This document shows positions 51,330 through 58,279 of a stretch of 64,000 bases of DNA, piece by piece. The stretch is from positions 77,291-141,290 of the forward strand of contig JBFWYU010000006.1 of NCBI GenBank assembly GCA_050186075.1, given 5' to 3'. The notes beneath the pieces were generated by a model, which was not told the origin of the DNA, searched no databases, and was given only the letters and a program-made list of their open reading frames with translations. This stretch comes from Bacteroidia bacterium. GTDB taxonomy: Bacteria > Bacteroidota > Bacteroidia > SXHM01. Positions within the stretch are counted from its first letter, which is position 1. Every line of letters begins with the position of its first letter. Made by a program: the position numbers and the translations under genes.

Positions 51330-51632
51330 TTATTTTAAATTCCGTTCTTTCAGGAGTTTTTCAAGGTCTTTGTTTCTTTTATTTTTAGGATCATTAACCA
51401 TTTTGTAAATAAAATACAATGGAATTAATGTAAGCATTCCCCAGGTGTTTTTAACAATACTGAAAAGTACAATGCCCGCTAAAAATCCAAGAAACAAAGC
51501 ATTAGTAATGGAAAATGATTTCATCTTTTTTGCTTCTTCTATTAATTCCTGGTCTGTTAATTCTGAAAGGTCTTTGTTTGCCATTATTTTTTTTCTTTTG
51601 GGTAGGTGCTGTTGTGCGTTCGTATTTTTCAA
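51330..51632 (-). CDS. small two-TM membrane protein, hypothetical
   Basis: 100-aa ORF with a hydrophobic core FLGFLAGIVLFSIV...MLTLIPLYFIY. 4-nt overlap with the upstream sensor-domain gene. The true start may be the internal MANKD. Confidence 0.35.
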   Translation of the reverse strand: MKNTNAQQHLPKRKKIMANKDLSELTDQELIEEAKKMKSFSITNALFLGFLAGIVLFSIVKNTWGMLTLIPLYFIYKMVNDPKNKRNKDLEKLLKERNLK

Positions 51633-52735
51633 AATTGCTTTTCAAACGTCTTTCCGTTAAACTTATATATGTTTCCGTCTGCCATACCAAACCATAATTC
51701 ACCTTTATTATCTTCAAAAATGGATAGGGCATTGTCATTGGTAAGTCCATCTTTCCTGGTGTAATTAGTCATCTTTACACCATCATATTTCCAAATTCCC
51801 GCATCTCTGTCTCCAAACCAGATATTACCTTTTCCATCTTCTGCAATGGTGAAAATGTGTTCGAGCGTGCCGGGCATTGATTTATCACCTTTTCTTCCGC
51901 TTGACGGGTGAATTAAGTTATTTTTTTCAGAAAAATTAATGATTGAATCACCCTCCTTCAGTAATACGCCTATTCCGTTATTACCAATCCAAAGCCGGCC
52001 TTTTGAGTCTTCGAAAATACTTCTGATGTGCAGCGGTGCAATAGTTCTGTCGAAGCCTAAGGTTTCATCATTGATGATTGCAAATTCGTTTCCGTTATAG
52101 CCAAAAACACCTGCGTAAGTAGCAAACCAAATCATATTGTTTTTTCCTTTAGCAATGCCGGTTACAGCAAATAAATTATCGTAATGATTAAGGACTTTAT
52201 GGGGTGGAAATGCTAAATAACTTAATTTTTGTCCATCGTATCTGTAAACTCCTTCTTTAATTCCAGCTTCAAACCAAAGGTCGTTATCTGATTTCATCCA
52301 TTGACCTTGCAATGGTTCATTGCTCTGAATAGGTAATTTAGTTTGTAATTTTTCTATGCCTGCTTTGGTGTGATTCACAATTTTTACCCCATCATAACTG
52401 CTCAGTCCCTGTTGAGTATTAAACCAAATAACACCTTCTTTGTCTTCCTGTATGTTGTGAATTTGATTGTCTGTCAATCCGTCATTACTATTATAGTAAG
52501 TGAATGATTTACCGTTGTAAACTGCAACTCCTTCCTGAAGACTTCCAAACCAATAATTGCCTTTACTGTCCTGAAAGATAGCACGTATTCCGGAAGTAAA
52601 TTTTAAGGTGTCGGCTTTTGAAGTCCTTACCAATTCAGATTTATTAACTTCTTTCTCGGTTGATTGCTTTTCACCGCACGAAAAGTTAAGTGTCAACAGG
52701 AGTATCAGGTAAATCAATTTTAATTTTTTGTTCAT
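51629..52735 (-). CDS. stand-alone two-component-regulator propeller (Reg_prop) ligand-binding sensor-domain lipoprotein
   Basis: Lipoprotein signal LILLLTLNFSCG. Repeated Reg_prop-type blades (GxxWFGTxxGVxxYNG, IWFNTQQGLSSYDG, LWIGNNGIGV, IWFGDRDAGIWKYDG, LWFGMADGNIYKF). No kinase domain. Start placed at the internal Met (the ORF extends to 52831). Confidence 0.6.
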   Translation of the reverse strand: MNKKLKLIYLILLLTLNFSCGEKQSTEKEVNKSELVRTSKADTLKFTSGIRAIFQDSKGNYWFGSLQEGVAVYNGKSFTYYNSNDGLTDNQIHNIQEDKEGVIWFNTQQGLSSYDGVKIVNHTKAGIEKLQTKLPIQSNEPLQGQWMKSDNDLWFEAGIKEGVYRYDGQKLSYLAFPPHKVLNHYDNLFAVTGIAKGKNNMIWFATYAGVFGYNGNEFAIINDETLGFDRTIAPLHIRSIFEDSKGRLWIGNNGIGVLLKEGDSIINFSEKNNLIHPSSGRKGDKSMPGTLEHIFTIAEDGKGNIWFGDRDAGIWKYDGVKMTNYTRKDGLTNDNALSIFEDNKGELWFGMADGNIYKFNGKTFEKQF

Positions 52736-52839
52736 TTCCGGTTTTCGAATATGACGCAGAACGTTTATTATGCAAAACAAACTTACCAAAACTTTCACTT
52801 TTTCATATTCATCCCATAGTATCCCGCACATTTTTCTCC

Positions 52840-53262: not shown

Positions 53263-53270
53263 TACCTTTG
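53263..53270 (+). promoter_or_regulatory. -7 promoter box TACCTTTG upstream of the HGQPGH-repeat lipoprotein gene
   Basis: Exact TAnnTTTG match ~21 bp upstream of the ATG at 53291. Confidence 0.4.
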
Positions 53271-53290
53271 AAATCACAAACACAACACAA

Positions 53291-53740
53291 ATGAAAGGAT
53301 ACATTACAGCACTTTGCGCAGGCTCATTATTATTTTTCTCGTGCGCTAATGAACAGGAACCCGCAACTGACAAAACCGAAAGCACTACGCAGGGCGCAGC
53401 GCAAACCACTGCACCAACGGCAATGCCTCCGGCTACATCACCTGCTTTTAATCCCGGTCAGCAAACTGCAACACCGCAATCATCAGCACCCGTTGCAGCG
53501 GGCATGAACCCCGAACACGGGCAACCCGGCCACCGTTGCGATATTGCTGTAGGCGCACCGCTTAACTCGCCACCTGCTGCACAACCATCGGTAACTACCG
53601 CACCTGCTATTAATACACAGCCGGCAACGCAAGCGCCCGTAGCTACACCACCTACAGCCACTGCTCCGGGAATGAATCCTCCGCACGGACAACCGGGACA
53701 CGATTGTGCCGTTGCCGTAGGTGCTCCGTTAAATAAATAG
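53291..53740 (+). CDS. P/A/T/Q-rich lipoprotein with two copies of a (M)NPxHGQPGHxCxxAVGAPLN motif
   Basis: Lipoprotein signal ALCAGSLLFFSCANEQ. Two near-identical 21-aa blocks, GMNPEHGQPGHRCDIAVGAPLNS and GMNPPHGQPGHDCAVAVGAPLNK, separated by a Pro/Ala/Thr/Gln-rich linker. Confidence 0.55.
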   Translation: MKGYITALCAGSLLFFSCANEQEPATDKTESTTQGAAQTTAPTAMPPATSPAFNPGQQTATPQSSAPVAAGMNPEHGQPGHRCDIAVGAPLNSPPAAQPSVTTAPAINTQPATQAPVATPPTATAPGMNPPHGQPGHDCAVAVGAPLNK

Positions 53741-53754
53741 TAGCGTTTAGTTTT

Positions 53755-53950
53755 TTACCAACCTGAGTTGGGAATAAGAAAACGGTCAATAACAGGTCGC
53801 TCCTATGGAGCTGATTACGCTATTGTATGTTCATTTTCTACAAACAGGTCGCCTCTGAAGAGGCTTTGTTAAGCCCCGGAGGGGCTACCTGTTTGTAGCA
53901 ACAGGAATAAGCATACCGATTTTAGCTCCGTAGGAGCGACCTTATCTCTA
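53755..53950. repeat. nested inverted-repeat element: a 19-bp outer IR enclosing a 12-bp inner IR plus two short GC hairpins. Possible MITE or structured RNA.
   Basis: Outer arms aggtcgctcctatggagct (53793..53811) and agctccgtaggagcgacct (53923..53941), 18/19 complementary. Inner arms ctacaaacaggt (53838..) and acctgtttgtag (53887..). Hairpins gcctctgaagaggc and gccccggaggggc lie between them. A ccaacctgagttgg palindrome is at 53757. Confidence 0.6.
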
Positions 53951-53959
53951 ATCGCAAAC

Positions 53960-54196
53960 TCAGGGTACTAATTTAAGATATAGCTTTTCTACTTTTTCCC
54001 TCGCCCAGGGCGTGCGTCTTAAAAATTTAAGACTCGAGTTCAGCGATGGATTGGAGATAAAACATTTTATCCTCACACGTTCGCCCAGTTCTTCCCAGCC
54101 ATATTCTTCCACCAGACGTTCCAGTATGGTCTGCAATGTTATGCCATGCAGTGGATTATTGGGTTGCGGGTTGGCGGGTGTGTTGTTAGTATCCAT
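53960..54196 (-). CDS. DUF2132 (VF530-like) small protein
   Basis: 78 aa with ...[57 protein letters not shown], matching the conserved DUF2132 core as recalled. Confidence 0.5.
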
Positions 54197-54599: not shown

Positions 54600-57155
54600 T
54601 TACTGAATAACAATCTTCCTGCTGAATTTTTCTTCGCCTGCGTTGATGCTTACCAGATAAACCCCGCCCGGCAAAGCTGCACGGTTAAGGTTTATGCGTT
54701 GAGCACCATAAAGTTTTCCTTTGTCTTCAGTGAAAACTTTTTGTCCTTTTATATCATATACATCCATTGTAACACTGCACATTTGTTCAAGGCTGAATGA
54801 AAGCGTTGTTGCCTCCGAAAAAGGATTGGGGAATATTTCCAGTTTTTGTAGCAACGTGTTTTCAGCCACCGAAACCAGAGGCTCATCGGTAATACCAAAA
54901 TCCCATGTTCCGCGTCCGTAGGTGCCAAAGCGCACCACATTTAATGAGGGAATATAATCAACGCTGGTATAATTCTGGTCGGGAGCGGTTACGCCTGCCA
55001 TATCAAACCATTCCTGCGTATTGAAATTATAACAATATGGTCCTACATCGGTTGCTGCAAACAGCAACAATTCGGTTGACGAAAGTTTTAAATCATTGAA
55101 CGATGTTTGCGGAATGTTATTGTCAATCGGTGAAAAAGTTTGTCCGTGATTTTCGGAAATAAATACACCGGCATTGCTGTAGCCGCTGCCACCAATAATT
55201 ACCCGGCCTAAATGTGTAGGCGAAGGAATAATCACATTCCCGCGAAAGTCGGGTACGTTAAATGTGTTGGACAAAGTCCATGTTTGTCCTTCGTCATCGG
55301 AATAAAAAAAGCGTCCGCGGTTGGTAAGTACATAGCGGTAGTTCCAGTCAATAGGTGAGTAGGCAACTGCCGTAATTTCATTGGTATTGTTGATGCTGAA
55401 ATTGTAAGGCAGTCGCTCGGCCTCCACATCACCGCTTAGGTGTTGCAGGTGCCAGAGGTATTGTCCGTTTACTGCTGAATCACCACCACCGGTGTAGGCA
55501 TAATTGTAATCATAAGGGTCGGCCATCATGGGCGCCATCCATTGCCATCCATCGCCCACAAAATCCCAGAAAGCAGAAAAATCACCAACATCAGCCGCCT
55601 CGGGATAATACATAGCAAAGCCGGGATAAACCGTCCACAGGCTGTTTCCGTCATCGCCCGAAACAATGCTGCCGTAGTCACCGCTGATACTTTGTTTAAA
55701 ACCTAATACTCCGCCCGAATCAACTCTGCATTTCTGAAAGCCCTGATCCTGGCTCCCCATGTATATGTAATTGGTGTTGGTGCGGTTGGTGTAGGTAGAA
55801 TAAAATTGTCCGGTGCGCATACCGTGTAGCGTAATGTTTTCAACCTGGTCCATTTGATTGTATGATTTATAAAGTCCGCCATCGGTTGAAATCATCGTTA
55901 CCTCGTTGCCGAGTGTATCATAGAATAAATCAATTCCGTCAATATCGGCATGAAGCGCATAACGTATATTGCCGTAATACTCATACCACTCGTTGCGCGG
56001 AAACCATCCTGCACCGGCATCGCCCGTAATGTGGAAGTTTACGGCACCAAAGTATAAACGATCAACATCGTTTAGCGAACATGCAAAACTGTTGCGTCCC
56101 CACAAACCGGCAGGTTCATCACCGGTATAATTCCAGTTCAATCCGCTGTTATCGCTGCGGTAAACCGCACCACCTGAAAGAACAGCAAGCTTTGCTGTTC
56201 CGTTGTTTTCTTCCAAACCTGTAATTACCGCCTCACCTCCCGAACTGCCGATGTCGGCTACAAACACAGGTTGTCCTGCATTGTCTAATTTATAAAAGTC
56301 GGCATCGTTAATCAGATAAACATTTCCGCTTGTGCCGTAGCGTGCAGTCCATATATCGGTATTGCCCGCCCATCCCGAATAGGAGGTAATGCGCGTAAAA
56401 CTCTCGCCCATATCATCCGAGCGATACAAAGCTGCAACGGGTTCCCATGCCGGGCCGTAATCCCATTCCAGCACTAAGGTGTAAAATAATTTGGGTTCAG
56501 TTGAAGTAACCACCACGCGAACAACATTACCCCAGTCAATCAGGCTTTCCAGACCTGTTGCGGTTTCCCACGTAAGGCCATCGTTGTCGCTGTAATAAAA
56601 ATATTTTCCTCCTGCCATGTAAAGGCGGTTTCCGTTTTGCAGTTCAAGGTGGCGAACAAAAATAATTTCGTTGCTCATGTAATCGTTCAGCGGTTGCCAG
56701 TCATCACCATCCAATGTACCCTTCCATAAAACTCCACCCGATGAGCCTGCATAAACAGCATTGGTTTCAAAATCAATATCGCAGGTGTGCATGCGGCCTG
56801 CAATATTGGTGCTGCCGCGCTCGCGCCATTCGCCTGTAAGCGAACCGTTACCCAGCACTTCTAAAATCTTTTCGTTTGATTTCAGTTGTCCTTTTTTGTA
56901 AAGTTCTTTGCGCAGCTGATTTCTGCTTTCTGCTCTTTCTTTGCGTGTTCTTTCGTCCATCGCTTTCCAGTCAACACCTTCGGCAGCGCCATGTTTTTTC
57001 TCCCACCATTCCTTGCGTCTTTGTTTCATTTCATCGTTCTCTTCAACTTCTGCCGGGGCAGGATGTTTTTTTGCGTCAGAGAAATATAACAAGCCACCCG
57101 CTGAAATAAGAATAAAGAAAAAGGCTGTACTGAAAAGTTGTGTTTTGTTCATCAT
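54600..57155 (-). CDS. secreted BNR/Asp-box repeat (sialidase/xyloglucanase-like beta-propeller) protein with T9SS type-A C-terminal sorting domain
   Basis: Signal/anchor. Multiple Asp-box repeats (SDNDGLTW, SDDMGESF, SDNSGLNW, SDDEGQTW, SENHGQTF). C-terminus LEIFPNPFSEATTLSFSL...GGVYLVSINAGEEKFSRKIVIQ matches the T9SS CTD pattern. 4-nt overlap with bshA. Confidence 0.65.
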   Translation of the reverse strand: MMNKTQLFSTAFFFILISAGGLLYFSDAKKHPAPAEVEENDEMKQRRKEWWEKKHGAAEGVDWKAMDERTRKERAESRNQLRKELYKKGQLKSNEKILEVLGNGSLTGEWRERGSTNIAGRMHTCDIDFETNAVYAGSSGGVLWKGTLDGDDWQPLNDYMSNEIIFVRHLELQNGNRLYMAGGKYFYYSDNDGLTWETATGLESLIDWGNVVRVVVTSTEPKLFYTLVLEWDYGPAWEPVAALYRSDDMGESFTRITSYSGWAGNTDIWTARYGTSGNVYLINDADFYKLDNAGQPVFVADIGSSGGEAVITGLEENNGTAKLAVLSGGAVYRSDNSGLNWNYTGDEPAGLWGRNSFACSLNDVDRLYFGAVNFHITGDAGAGWFPRNEWYEYYGNIRYALHADIDGIDLFYDTLGNEVTMISTDGGLYKSYNQMDQVENITLHGMRTGQFYSTYTNRTNTNYIYMGSQDQGFQKCRVDSGGVLGFKQSISGDYGSIVSGDDGNSLWTVYPGFAMYYPEAADVGDFSAFWDFVGDGWQWMAPMMADPYDYNYAYTGGGDSAVNGQYLWHLQHLSGDVEAERLPYNFSINNTNEITAVAYSPIDWNYRYVLTNRGRFFYSDDEGQTWTLSNTFNVPDFRGNVIIPSPTHLGRVIIGGSGYSNAGVFISENHGQTFSPIDNNIPQTSFNDLKLSSTELLLFAATDVGPYCYNFNTQEWFDMAGVTAPDQNYTSVDYIPSLNVVRFGTYGRGTWDFGITDEPLVSVAENTLLQKLEIFPNPFSEATTLSFSLEQMCSVTMDVYDIKGQKVFTEDKGKLYGAQRINLNRAALPGGVYLVSINAGEEKFSRKIVIQ

Positions 57156-58279
57156 ATTTTGTTAATCACACGTTCATAAAGGTTCTCGTAAAGCGGAAGA
57201 ATTTTAGAAAGTTCAAATTCTTTGGCTCGTTTCAATGCGTTGTTGCGGAAGGTATCGTGTGTTTTTTTGTCTTTTAAAATGCTGATTGCATTTTTTGCCA
57301 TGTCGTCCACATCGCCCACATTGCTCAGGTAGCCCGAAACACCGTGAACATTTACTTCGGGCAAACCGCCTGTGTTGGTTGAAATAACCGGCACCGAAGC
57401 GGCCATTGCCTCTAATGCTGAAAGACCAAAGCTTTCGGTTTCGGAAGGCAGAATAAATAAATCAGCCATTGCCAGTGCCTGTTCGGTTGCTTTCATTTTT
57501 CCGAGAAACTGTATTTCATCACAAGTGCCTAACTCGCGGCACATCGCTTCTATTTTACTGCGCTCGGGACCATCGCCTACGAGCAAAAGTTTTACAGGAA
57601 TTTGTTTTCTTATTTTATCAAATACACGCACCACATCTTCCACACGTTTTACCGGGCGGAAGTTGGAGATGTGCAGCAATACTTTTTTATCACCTGTATT
57701 GTAATTGAATTTGCTCAGCGCATTTTTTGCTTTACCGTATAAATCAATGTCTACAAAATTGGGGATAACCTCAATTTCGCGTTTTACATTAAAGAACTTG
57801 TAGGTATCTTGTTTCAGACTTTCTGAAACTGAAGTTACAGCATCGCTTTCATTAATAGCAAACGTGATAACGGGTTCAAATGAAGCATCTTTTCCTACCA
57901 ATGTAATATCCGTTCCGTGCAGCGTTGTGATGTAAGGAATTTTAATTCCCTGCGAGGCCAGAATTTGTTTTGCCATATAAGCCGCAGAAGCATGGGGAAT
58001 AGCATAATGCACATGCAGCAGGTCTAACTTTTCGTGTTTAGCCACATCTACTAATTTGCTGGAAAGTACCAATTCGTAAGGTTGGTAATCAAACAGAGGA
58101 TAATCACTTACCTGTACCTCATGATAAAACAGGTTGGGTGAGAAGTTGTCGAATCGCACCGGCATATCATACGTAATGAAATGTACCTGATGACCTTTAT
58201 GAGCCAGCGCATTGCCTAATTCAGTTGCCACCACACCGCTACCACCAAAGGTGGGATAACATACTATGCCGATTTTCAT
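57152..58279 (-). CDS. bshA: GT4 glycosyltransferase, BshA-like (N-acetyl-alpha-D-glucosaminyl L-malate synthase)
   Basis: N-terminus MKIGIVCYPTFGGSGVVATELGNALAHKGHQVHFIT parallels BshA (MKIGITCYP.VGGSGVVATELG). C-terminal GT4 E-x7-E region present. Confidence 0.7.
   Translation of the reverse strand: MKIGIVCYPTFGGSGVVATELGNALAHKGHQVHFITYDMPVRFDNFSPNLFYHEVQVSDYPLFDYQPYELVLSSKLVDVAKHEKLDLLHVHYAIPHASAAYMAKQILASQGIKIPYITTLHGTDITLVGKDASFEPVITFAINESDAVTSVSESLKQDTYKFFNVKREIEVIPNFVDIDLYGKAKNALSKFNYNTGDKKVLLHISNFRPVKRVEDVVRVFDKIRKQIPVKLLLVGDGPERSKIEAMCRELGTCDEIQFLGKMKATEQALAMADLFILPSETESFGLSALEAMAASVPVISTNTGGLPEVNVHGVSGYLSNVGDVDDMAKNAISILKDKKTHDTFRNNALKRAKEFELSKILPLYENLYERVINKI

Follow-up and report, generated by a model that had tools for sequence, protein, structure and literature searches.

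Pht proteins (PhtA/B/D/E; Strep_his_triad) are envelope proteins with several short His motifs, each binding one Zn(II), and are thought to pass the metal to an importer. Their motif, HxxHxH, lacks Cys and lies within larger folded domains, and these proteins are Gram-positive and linked to adcAII and to regulation by AdcR. PcoE and SilE are small, soluble envelope proteins, disordered without metal, whose repeated Met/His motifs, also without Cys, fold on Cu(I) or Ag(I); their genes lie in pco/sil/cus resistance clusters on plasmids or islands. In the prion protein, a disordered, lipid-anchored extracellular protein of eukaryotes, each of the contiguous octarepeats (PHGGGWGQ), which carry one His and no Cys and have no linkers between them, can bind Cu(II). 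Here we describe a gene encoding a lipoprotein with two modules of the form His-x4-His-x-Cys, found in a stretch of 64,000 nucleotides from the genome of a Bacteroidia bacterium (assembly GCA_050186075.1, contig JBFWYU010000006.1, positions 77,291 to 141,290), hereafter the window. The protein belongs to a large family of lipid-anchored envelope proteins that probably carry 2–7 independent metal-chelating mini-sites on flexible linkers, a reading to which we assign a probability of roughly 0.55. By analogy, the family would work like a tandem-site envelope metal binder, yet it stands outside any described family tested.

The open reading frame (ORF) claimed in an earlier note on this DNA, 149 amino acids from an ATG start, was confirmed exactly as described there, and the sequence also bore out the proposed architecture, a lipoprotein whose flexible linkers carry the His-x4-His-x-Cys module in duplicate (Table 1). 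The N-terminus, MKGYITALCAGSLLFFSC followed by ANEQE, shows a short basic n-region, a hydrophobic core and a lipobox-like FFSC, ending in Cys18, which is predicted to be acylated. By the sequence definition, the window protein is a bacterial lipoprotein, that is, a substrate of signal peptidase II. A lipobox ending in Cys was present in about 100 of the 120 best homologues, and those without it appeared mostly to be N-terminally truncated or to have extended ORF calls. The two 22-residue modules follow the consensus G-M-N-P-x-H-G-Q-P-G-H-x-C-x-x-A-V-G-A-P-L-N, and the protein ends one residue past module 2. Both linkers are rich in Thr/Ala/Pro/Ser/Val/Gln and essentially devoid of His and Cys. 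The modules are identical at 18 of 22 residues and at 45 of 66 nucleotides; as the codons differ at 12 of the 18 identical residues, the repeat is maintained by selection at the protein level. The same synonymous differences rule out a recent DNA duplication or gene conversion as its origin, and the protein-level conservation rules out a chance match. No further copy of the module was found anywhere else in the window. The G+C content of the gene (55%, compared with 41% for the window) stems from Pro/Ala/Gly coding, and the ORFs overlapping it on the reverse strand were therefore rejected as spurious by-products of composition.

Residues of the metal-binding type were clearly conserved across homologues, and the module is thus not the structural repeat devoid of conserved metal-binding residues that the earlier note had weighed against its own proposal. 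Modules were located in two mutually non-circular ways. When only non-ligand residues served as anchor, and positions were counted from the first His of the module, His0 and His5 were each present in 1162/1162 modules and Cys7 in 1160/1162. When His-x4-His-x-Cys served as anchor, Asn-3, Pro-2, Gly+1, Gly+12, Pro+14 and Leu+15 were invariant (295 modules). The conserved core of the family reads N-P-x-H-G-x-P-G-H-R-C-D-I-x-V-G-x-P-L, with Arg6 conserved at 94% and Asp8 at 92%. An Asp or Glu adjoins the Cys in 1139 of 1160 modules (98%), so that the acidic residue relocates around the Cys rather than disappearing, which argues for a metal site. In the H-D-C-[A/S] variant, which takes the last place in two-module members, the Arg is lost and the acid precedes the Cys rather than following it. 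This D-C-A or D-C-S form occurs in 32 modules, every one of them the last in its protein, including module 2 of the window and those of Rufibacter and another Bacteroidota metagenome-assembled genome (MAG; loci L021 and L039), and its confinement to last modules suggests a distinct role or affinity of the C-terminal site. The Met that the earlier note had included in the motif did not prove to be a conserved part of it (Met 68%, Leu 21% and Ile 9% across the family), and this lack of conservation rules it out as a ligand.

The contrast between modules and linkers holds throughout the family. Module positions account for about 97% of the His and about 95% of the Cys beyond residue 25, whereas linkers contain 0.1% of each. 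Among the 12 closest orthologues (65–87% identical overall) the linkers vary while the modules stay fixed, with 20 of 23 positions invariant in module 1 (G71–S93) and 18 of 21 in module 2. Moreover, each module carries one Cys and the number of modules is odd in 298 of 408 proteins, so intramolecular disulfides cannot explain the conservation of this residue. When a conserved Cys of an extracytoplasmic protein has no partner, it usually serves as a ligand for a metal or cofactor. Taken at the level of sequence, binding of Cu or Zn by the modules is the best explanation that we can offer.

As the earlier note had supposed, the module belongs to no named family: neither a Pfam nor an NCBIfam model covers the protein. 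A Pfam scan at E <= 10 returned only compositional matches, to Extensin_1 (E 0.0076, far below the cut-off) and Pneumo_att_G. Assignment to the PG1828 family lipoproteins (NCBIfam NF050142) was rejected, at 18.8 bits (E 0.002) against a curated cut-off of 50 bits, with the alignment to the 59-position profile confined to residues 6–41 of the protein (signal peptide and first mature residues). A full-length search of a database clustered at 90% identity yielded 6157 homologues at E <= 1e-3, all annotated as 'hypothetical protein' or 'lipoprotein' and without Pfam domains; one, from a MAG labelled 'Bacteroidia bacterium', was identical, and a Solitalea member was also among the matches. A profile of the 32-residue module region matched 1647 clusters at 50% identity, of which 1526 reached E <= 1e-10, and the family is therefore sharply bounded. 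It can be defined by N-P-x-H-G-x-P-[GN]-H-x-C-x-x-x-V-G-x-P-L between Pro/Thr/Ala-rich linkers, a pattern of which the window protein has two copies. The best 150 representatives have 146–398 residues and 3–7 modules, and neither these nor the best 120 homologues contain extra domains, only signal peptide, modules and linkers. Among 408 distinct proteins, 288 have three modules, 64 have two, 46 have four and eight have five, with single proteins at one and at seven.

A scan of one genome per GTDB species gave more than 590 confirmed stretches, and the named sources among the best 80 of these were all Bacteroidota: Flavobacterium, Chitinophagaceae (Chitinophaga, Ferruginibacter, Lacibacter, Flavihumibacter, Flavisolibacter), Saprospirales, Sphingobacteriales and Rufibacter. 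The family ranges over Flavobacteriia, Chitinophagia, Sphingobacteriia, Saprospiria and Cytophagia, with thousands of sequences. It is not always single-copy, as the Chitinophagaceae MAG JBEBIF01 carries two different three-module paralogues (L006, L023). Many members of Chitinophagaceae type (P0015–P0028 and others) end in a C-terminal tail of 20–40 residues, ...P-x-K-x-D-S-[S/T/L]-x-K-N/Q, and the Bacteroidota O-glycosylation-type sequon D-[ST]-[AILVMT] occurs in 255 of 414 mature proteins and in 55 of 414 tails. The window protein has neither the tail nor the sequon.

In Flavobacterium johnsoniae UW101 the family member is ABQ04371.1, a 'hypothetical lipoprotein' whose gene is followed by those for a hibernation factor, a 78-codon ORF and an AsmA-like protein; the SnoaL_3 protein encoded upstream has a Cys-free signal peptide. 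In published data Fjoh_1342 is named AsmA-like, and in the supplement Fjoh_1340 is given as cytoplasmic and Fjoh_1339 (A5FK94) is assigned to SPII (PMC12045153). From the gene order, these descriptions and the Cys-free signal peptide of the SnoaL_3 protein, we infer that the orthologue is Fjoh_1339/A5FK94, by synteny and description rather than by explicit cross-reference. Fjoh_1339 is classed as SPII by SignalP (PMC11885536, PMC12045153), was identified by mass spectrometry in outer-membrane fractions (PMC11885536, Supplementary Data 1), increased about 2-fold in the lolA1 and lolB1 mutants (fold changes of 2.03 and 1.81) and was not flagged as essential (PMC11885536). About 12 spectral counts were reported for it in the TamL study (PMC12045153 supplement). 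In a phosphate-limitation study its transcript levels resembled those of the neighbouring genes, and none of the three tabulated comparisons showed a significant change (PMC8115612 supplement). The lolA1 table labels it 'SPII, OM lipoprotein' (periplasm-facing), whereas the lolB1 table has 'SPII-LES, surface-exposed' (PMC11885536). Given these conflicting labels, the 'periplasmic' placing of the protein in the earlier note is uncertain. The residues that follow the lipid-bearing Cys are acidic, in CKKELEPQE in Flavobacterium and CANEQEP in the window, with no clear match to the export-signal consensus. Literature searches for the module motif, as sequence or in pattern notation, and for ABQ04371 found neither, no paper found had the locus in its main text, and generic searches on Zn and Cu in Flavobacterium gave nothing relevant.

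We propose that the protein is an outer-membrane-anchored 'beads-on-a-string' lipoprotein, in which each 22-residue module would be a self-contained mini-domain built around one soft or borderline metal ion. The most plausible ions would be Cu(I)/Cu(II) and Zn(II), with Ni, Co, Fe(II) and Cd also possible. The ligands of the ion would be His0, His5 and Cys7, the carboxylate beside the Cys would serve as fourth ligand or charge partner, and the invariant Asn, Pro, Gly, Val and Leu would shape a tight loop. Disordered Pro/Thr/Ala linkers would let the 2–7 sites sweep the periplasm or the cell surface, so that the protein could act as a multivalent metal buffer or relay that captures metal for importers or metalloenzymes, or sequesters an excess of it. 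In this scheme we infer metal binding itself, the ligand residues and the kind of metal, and also how the protein is oriented and what it does in the cell. Outside the cytoplasm, Cys ligands are found more often in copper proteins (cupredoxins, Sco, NosL, CueP) than in proteins of zinc uptake, where His and carboxylates prevail, but His2-Cys-Asp is a classical Zn set; either metal would fit.

Structure predictions were mixed. AlphaFold2 modelled the isolated 32-residue module, together with 60 aligned modules, at a mean predicted local distance difference test score (pLDDT) of 92, without helices or strands. A beta-bridge between residues 7 and 25 joins the ends of the module in this model, suggesting a closed loop, and the module may fold on its own. 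Searches of the PDB with the protein and with the module profile gave no significant relative; the sole profile alignment was an insignificant one (E 3.9) to eight residues, HGERGHRC, of a C2H2 zinc-finger protein. Foldseek found no match (0) for the module model in the PDB.

A number of observations weigh against metal binding as proposed here. Two of the five models of the isolated module scored only 71 and 65, and the full-length AlphaFold2 prediction (12 orthologues) contradicts the isolated-module model, being disordered throughout, modules included (mean pLDDT 46, predicted template modelling score 0.11). Together, the predictions are compatible with a module that needs its ligand to fold. 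The earlier note had likened the His/Cys/Met clusters to those of copper or zinc chaperones, a kinship for which no sequence or fold relationship was found, nor does the protein resemble any known metal-binding family, solved structure or Foldseek target. For the genomic context, ORFs were called in 83 loci, all neighbours were clustered by BLASTP and recurrences were counted. The metal-efflux or TonB genes that the earlier note had suggested looking for did not emerge: in these loci no metal exporter, importer or TonB-dependent receptor is a conserved neighbour. No metal-sensor regulatory site was identified, no metal-dependent expression data were found for the family, and no copy was found in a plasmid collection by tblastn. 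Finally, conservation reaches about ten non-ligand residues, beyond the need of chelation alone, and would be just as compatible with a conserved partner or enzyme that recognises the module.

Such a partner is central to one alternative, in which the module is a short linear docking motif whose copies on a tether bind a conserved component of the envelope (for instance peptidoglycan, an outer-membrane barrel or part of the secretion or gliding apparatus), with His and Cys as contact or catalytic-partner residues. In its favour are about 19 of 22 positions that are nearly invariant, many of them non-ligand, a full-length model whose disorder is typical of linear motifs, and a stand-alone gene that fits a partner encoded elsewhere. 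However, no lineage has a candidate partner that co-occurs with the gene or lies near it, a cluster of His2-Cys-Asp within nine residues is not typical of docking motifs, and the model of the isolated module points to independent folding; we consider docking unlikely. A more ambitious form of the metal-binding reading is also rather unlikely: the module would be a previously unrecognised, autonomously folding metal mini-domain unique to Bacteroidota, and the lipoprotein would be either a surface-exposed, multivalent 'tethered metallophore' that takes Cu or Zn from the surroundings and passes it to outer-membrane transporters or a carrier of type-1-like His2-Cys copper centres on a tether.

The single Cys exposed by each module in an oxidising compartment could instead form intermolecular disulfides or other cross-links, which would make the protein an extensin- or mucin-like structural polymer or spacer of the envelope or surface. 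The composition of the linkers, with their weak Extensin_1 match, and the O-glycosylation-type sequons found in the family agree with this. It is nonetheless quite improbable, as the two invariant His, the relocating acid and the invariant turn residues would be left unexplained and cross-linking Cys rarely need a fixed context of 20 residues. Near-identical cores repeated between variable spacers, in numbers from 1 to 7, resemble multi-core precursors of ribosomally synthesised and post-translationally modified peptides, and the modules might carry a modification (e.g. a thioether or a Cys-His cross-link) or be excised to give peptide metallophores. This idea is hard to reconcile with a lipoprotein signal in place of a leader peptide, with the presence of the intact protein class in outer-membrane proteomes and with the 83 loci, where no maturase, protease, transporter or other neighbouring enzyme gene is conserved alongside and the downstream genes depend on lineage; we regard it as very improbable. 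Nor do we give much more than nominal credit to modules that bind a cofactor other than a metal ion, such as haem, or serve as thiol centres with redox activity. Both residues are classical axial ligands of haem (His as well as Cys), and the envelope is where Bacteroidota handle it, but the protein has no CXXCH or Cys-Pro haem motif, a 22-residue loop offers no hydrophobic pocket, and no haem-uptake genes lie nearby.

Compared with the systems introduced above, the Pht proteins provide the best analogy for the proposed action of a metal-binding module, sharing with the family a short His-based motif in several copies on a surface or lipid-anchored protein. The window protein nevertheless contains no HxxHxH, has no match to the Strep_his_triad profile and has no conserved importer as neighbour. 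PcoE and SilE are likewise small envelope proteins with several short repeated metal motifs (here putative), but the modules of the family contain Cys, its members are lipid-anchored, no efflux or resistance gene is a conserved neighbour in the 83 loci and no plasmid copy exists in the collection searched. The octarepeats of the prion protein resemble the modules in being tandem, short and rich in His/Gly/Pro within a disordered, lipid-anchored protein, and differ in the features listed above; the two are not homologous.

Single metal sites of other proteins were also considered. The type 1 (blue) copper site of cupredoxins combines two His and one Cys with a variable fourth position, Met in the majority and Leu/Phe/Gln in the rest, to which the Met/Leu/Ile position of the module would correspond. 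In cupredoxins, however, the ligands come in the order His ... Cys-x(n)-His-x(n)-Met from across a Greek-key beta-barrel about 100 residues long, whereas the module places His-x4-His-x-Cys within 8 residues of a 22-residue loop for which no strands are predicted; neither Pfam nor Foldseek gave a match. Zinc knuckles, like other mini zinc modules, are similar in size (about 15–25 residues) and in wrapping Gly/Pro turns around one ion without regular secondary structure, but they are cytoplasmic or nuclear nucleic-acid binders with Cys-rich ligand sets (CCHC, C2H2), while the module is extracytoplasmic and has a single Cys. Membership of the CCHC knuckles was rejected, as their defining features are absent. 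HMA domains of the CopZ/MerP type (MxCxxC in a ferredoxin-like fold of about 70 residues) did not match either, there being no CxxC and no Pfam or PDB match.

The family gene behaves as a self-sufficient, mostly monocistronic unit. Synteny was found within lineages only, both in three loci chosen by hand and among the 83, where no family of neighbours extends from one lineage to another. In one group of Flavobacterium the gene is flanked upstream by genes for a SnoaL_3 protein and an ammonium transporter and downstream by that for a ribosome hibernation factor, and in 13 loci of Chitinophagaceae and Sphingobacteriales a DinB_2 gene lies directly downstream (L002, L007, L008, L014, L022, L023, L025, L034, L035, L040, L054, L075, L077). 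This gene, of about 170 codons, is on the same strand and sometimes only 2–10 nucleotides away, and is absent in Flavobacterium and the window. DinB-fold proteins often have a metal-binding His triad; the adjacency may be lineage synteny only. Downstream genes in other lineages encode CIA30-like, SRPBCC, QueD, GNAT, Smr or DJ-1 proteins. An RND-MFP gene about 8 kb off in F. crocinum was rejected as a partner because it is not conserved as a neighbour. A same-strand neighbour within 100 nucleotides was found upstream in 16 of 76 loci and downstream in 19 of 83.

A sigma-70 promoter scan of the gene region gave no match, as expected for Bacteroidota, and the Bacteroidota -7 motif was therefore used. 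An exact TAnnTTTG was present within the last 60 nucleotides upstream in 42 of 79 family loci, compared with 3.6 expected from shuffles, and it started 27–36 nucleotides ahead of the ATG in 39 of these 42. The box in the window (Table 1) would thus be a promoter element, giving the gene a short leader and its own promoter, and most family genes probably have a Bacteroidota-type promoter of their own. The lack of operon partners, the single chromosomal gene and its own promoter suggest a housekeeping role rather than that of a determinant carried on a resistance island. Inspection by eye of the regions upstream of family loci revealed no operator common across lineages, only a Flavobacterium-specific repeat. 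Eleven Flavobacterium loci (L024, L028, L032, L038, L041, L044, L056, L058, L060, L066, L072) share CTTAAATTnTCTTAyATnACTTATATGG, a segment with three direct CTTAnAT repeats at a spacing of about 10 bp, situated about 45–80 nucleotides before the ATG of the lipoprotein gene, within the divergent intergenic region shared with the SnoaL_3 gene. This segment looks like a transcription-factor site of the response-regulator type; it is lineage-specific and absent from the window.

In the window the lipoprotein gene stands alone. The Reg_prop gene 459 nucleotides upstream of it is transcribed divergently, and the VF530 gene, at a distance of 219 nucleotides, is convergent with it. The neighbours (penicillin amidase, Reg_prop protein, VF530, DUF1801, a BNR protein sorted by the type IX secretion system and a GT4 glycosyltransferase) are unrelated to it and mostly on the opposite strand. 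The Reg_prop neighbour, an ORF of 400 amino acids with two-component regulator propeller repeats that probably starts at an internal Met, is probably a lipoprotein and not a cytoplasmic regulator, since MNKKLKLIYLILLLTLNFSCGEKQ looks like a lipoprotein signal. The BNR/sortilin-repeat protein has 851 amino acids and a C-terminal sorting domain for type IX secretion, and its gene and that of the glycosyltransferase overlap by 4 nucleotides, which suggests one operon.

The convergent intergenic region downstream contains an imperfect palindrome (Table 1) with three AACAGGT(C/A)GC units, each followed by a short GC hairpin, at 53791 and 53843 in forward and at 53893 in reverse orientation. Folding of 53741–53960 as RNA gave -96.3 kcal/mol (z = -8.7 relative to shuffles). 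No second full copy was seen in the window, and an Rfam scan of the gene flanks gave no credible match. The palindrome could act as a terminator in both directions, or it could be a small palindromic element that is mobile or resembles repetitive extragenic palindromes (REP-like); no tie to the function of the gene is implied.

Table 1. Features of the lipoprotein gene and its surroundings, in window coordinates.
Feature	Position	Strand	Remarks
Candidate Bacteroidota-type -7 box, TACCTTTG	53263..53270	+	Perfect match to consensus TAnnTTTG; starts 28 nucleotides before the ATG
Lipoprotein gene	53291..53740	+	ATG start, 149 amino acids
Type II (lipoprotein) signal peptide	53291..53341	+	Residues 1-17; assigned from sequence
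Cys18, predicted lipid-modified first mature residue	53342..53344	+	Invariant in the 12 closest orthologues
Linker 1	53345..53500	+	Residues 19-70 (52 residues); low-complexity Thr/Ala/Pro/Gln, predicted disordered, AlphaFold pLDDT <60
Module 1, GMNPEHGQPGHRCDIAVGAPLN	53501..53566	+	Residues 71-92 (G71-N92); putative ligands His76, His81, Cys83; Asp84 alongside
Linker 2	53567..53668	+	Residues 93-126 (34 residues); Pro/Ala/Thr/Gln-rich
Module 2, GMNPPHGQPGHDCAVAVGAPLN	53669..53734	+	Residues 127-148 (G127-N148); putative ligands His132, His137, Cys139; 'H-D-C-A' variant
Imperfect palindrome, about 150 nucleotides	53794..53942	.	Convergent intergenic region; inverted repeat, 63-nucleotide arms, 73% complementary
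Terminator-like hairpins	53851-53864 and 53872-53886		Inside the palindrome region
Reg_prop gene	51629-52831	-	
BNR/sortilin-repeat gene	54600-57155	-	
GT4 glycosyltransferase gene	57152-58279	-	

Bacteroidota are dominant in soils, in fresh water, on plant roots and in guts, and the handling of trace metals in their envelope is much less understood than in Proteobacteria or Firmicutes. The family described here is very widespread, expressed and, judging from its inferred orthologue, outer-membrane-associated, and it is without a name or a Pfam model. Its sole conserved feature is among the most rigidly fixed short motifs, with the His unchanged and the Cys changed in 2 of more than 1000 copies. 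If the module binds no metal, such an invariant motif must point to a conserved partner or modification. Fjoh_1339, the inferred orthologue, is carried by the genetically tractable F. johnsoniae. If metal binding is true, the module would be a new mini-domain and could make an attractive 22-residue tag in protein engineering, and the family would add a new participant to metal homeostasis in Bacteroidota; a tethered metallophore or type-1-like centres would amount to a new way for these bacteria to acquire or handle metal.

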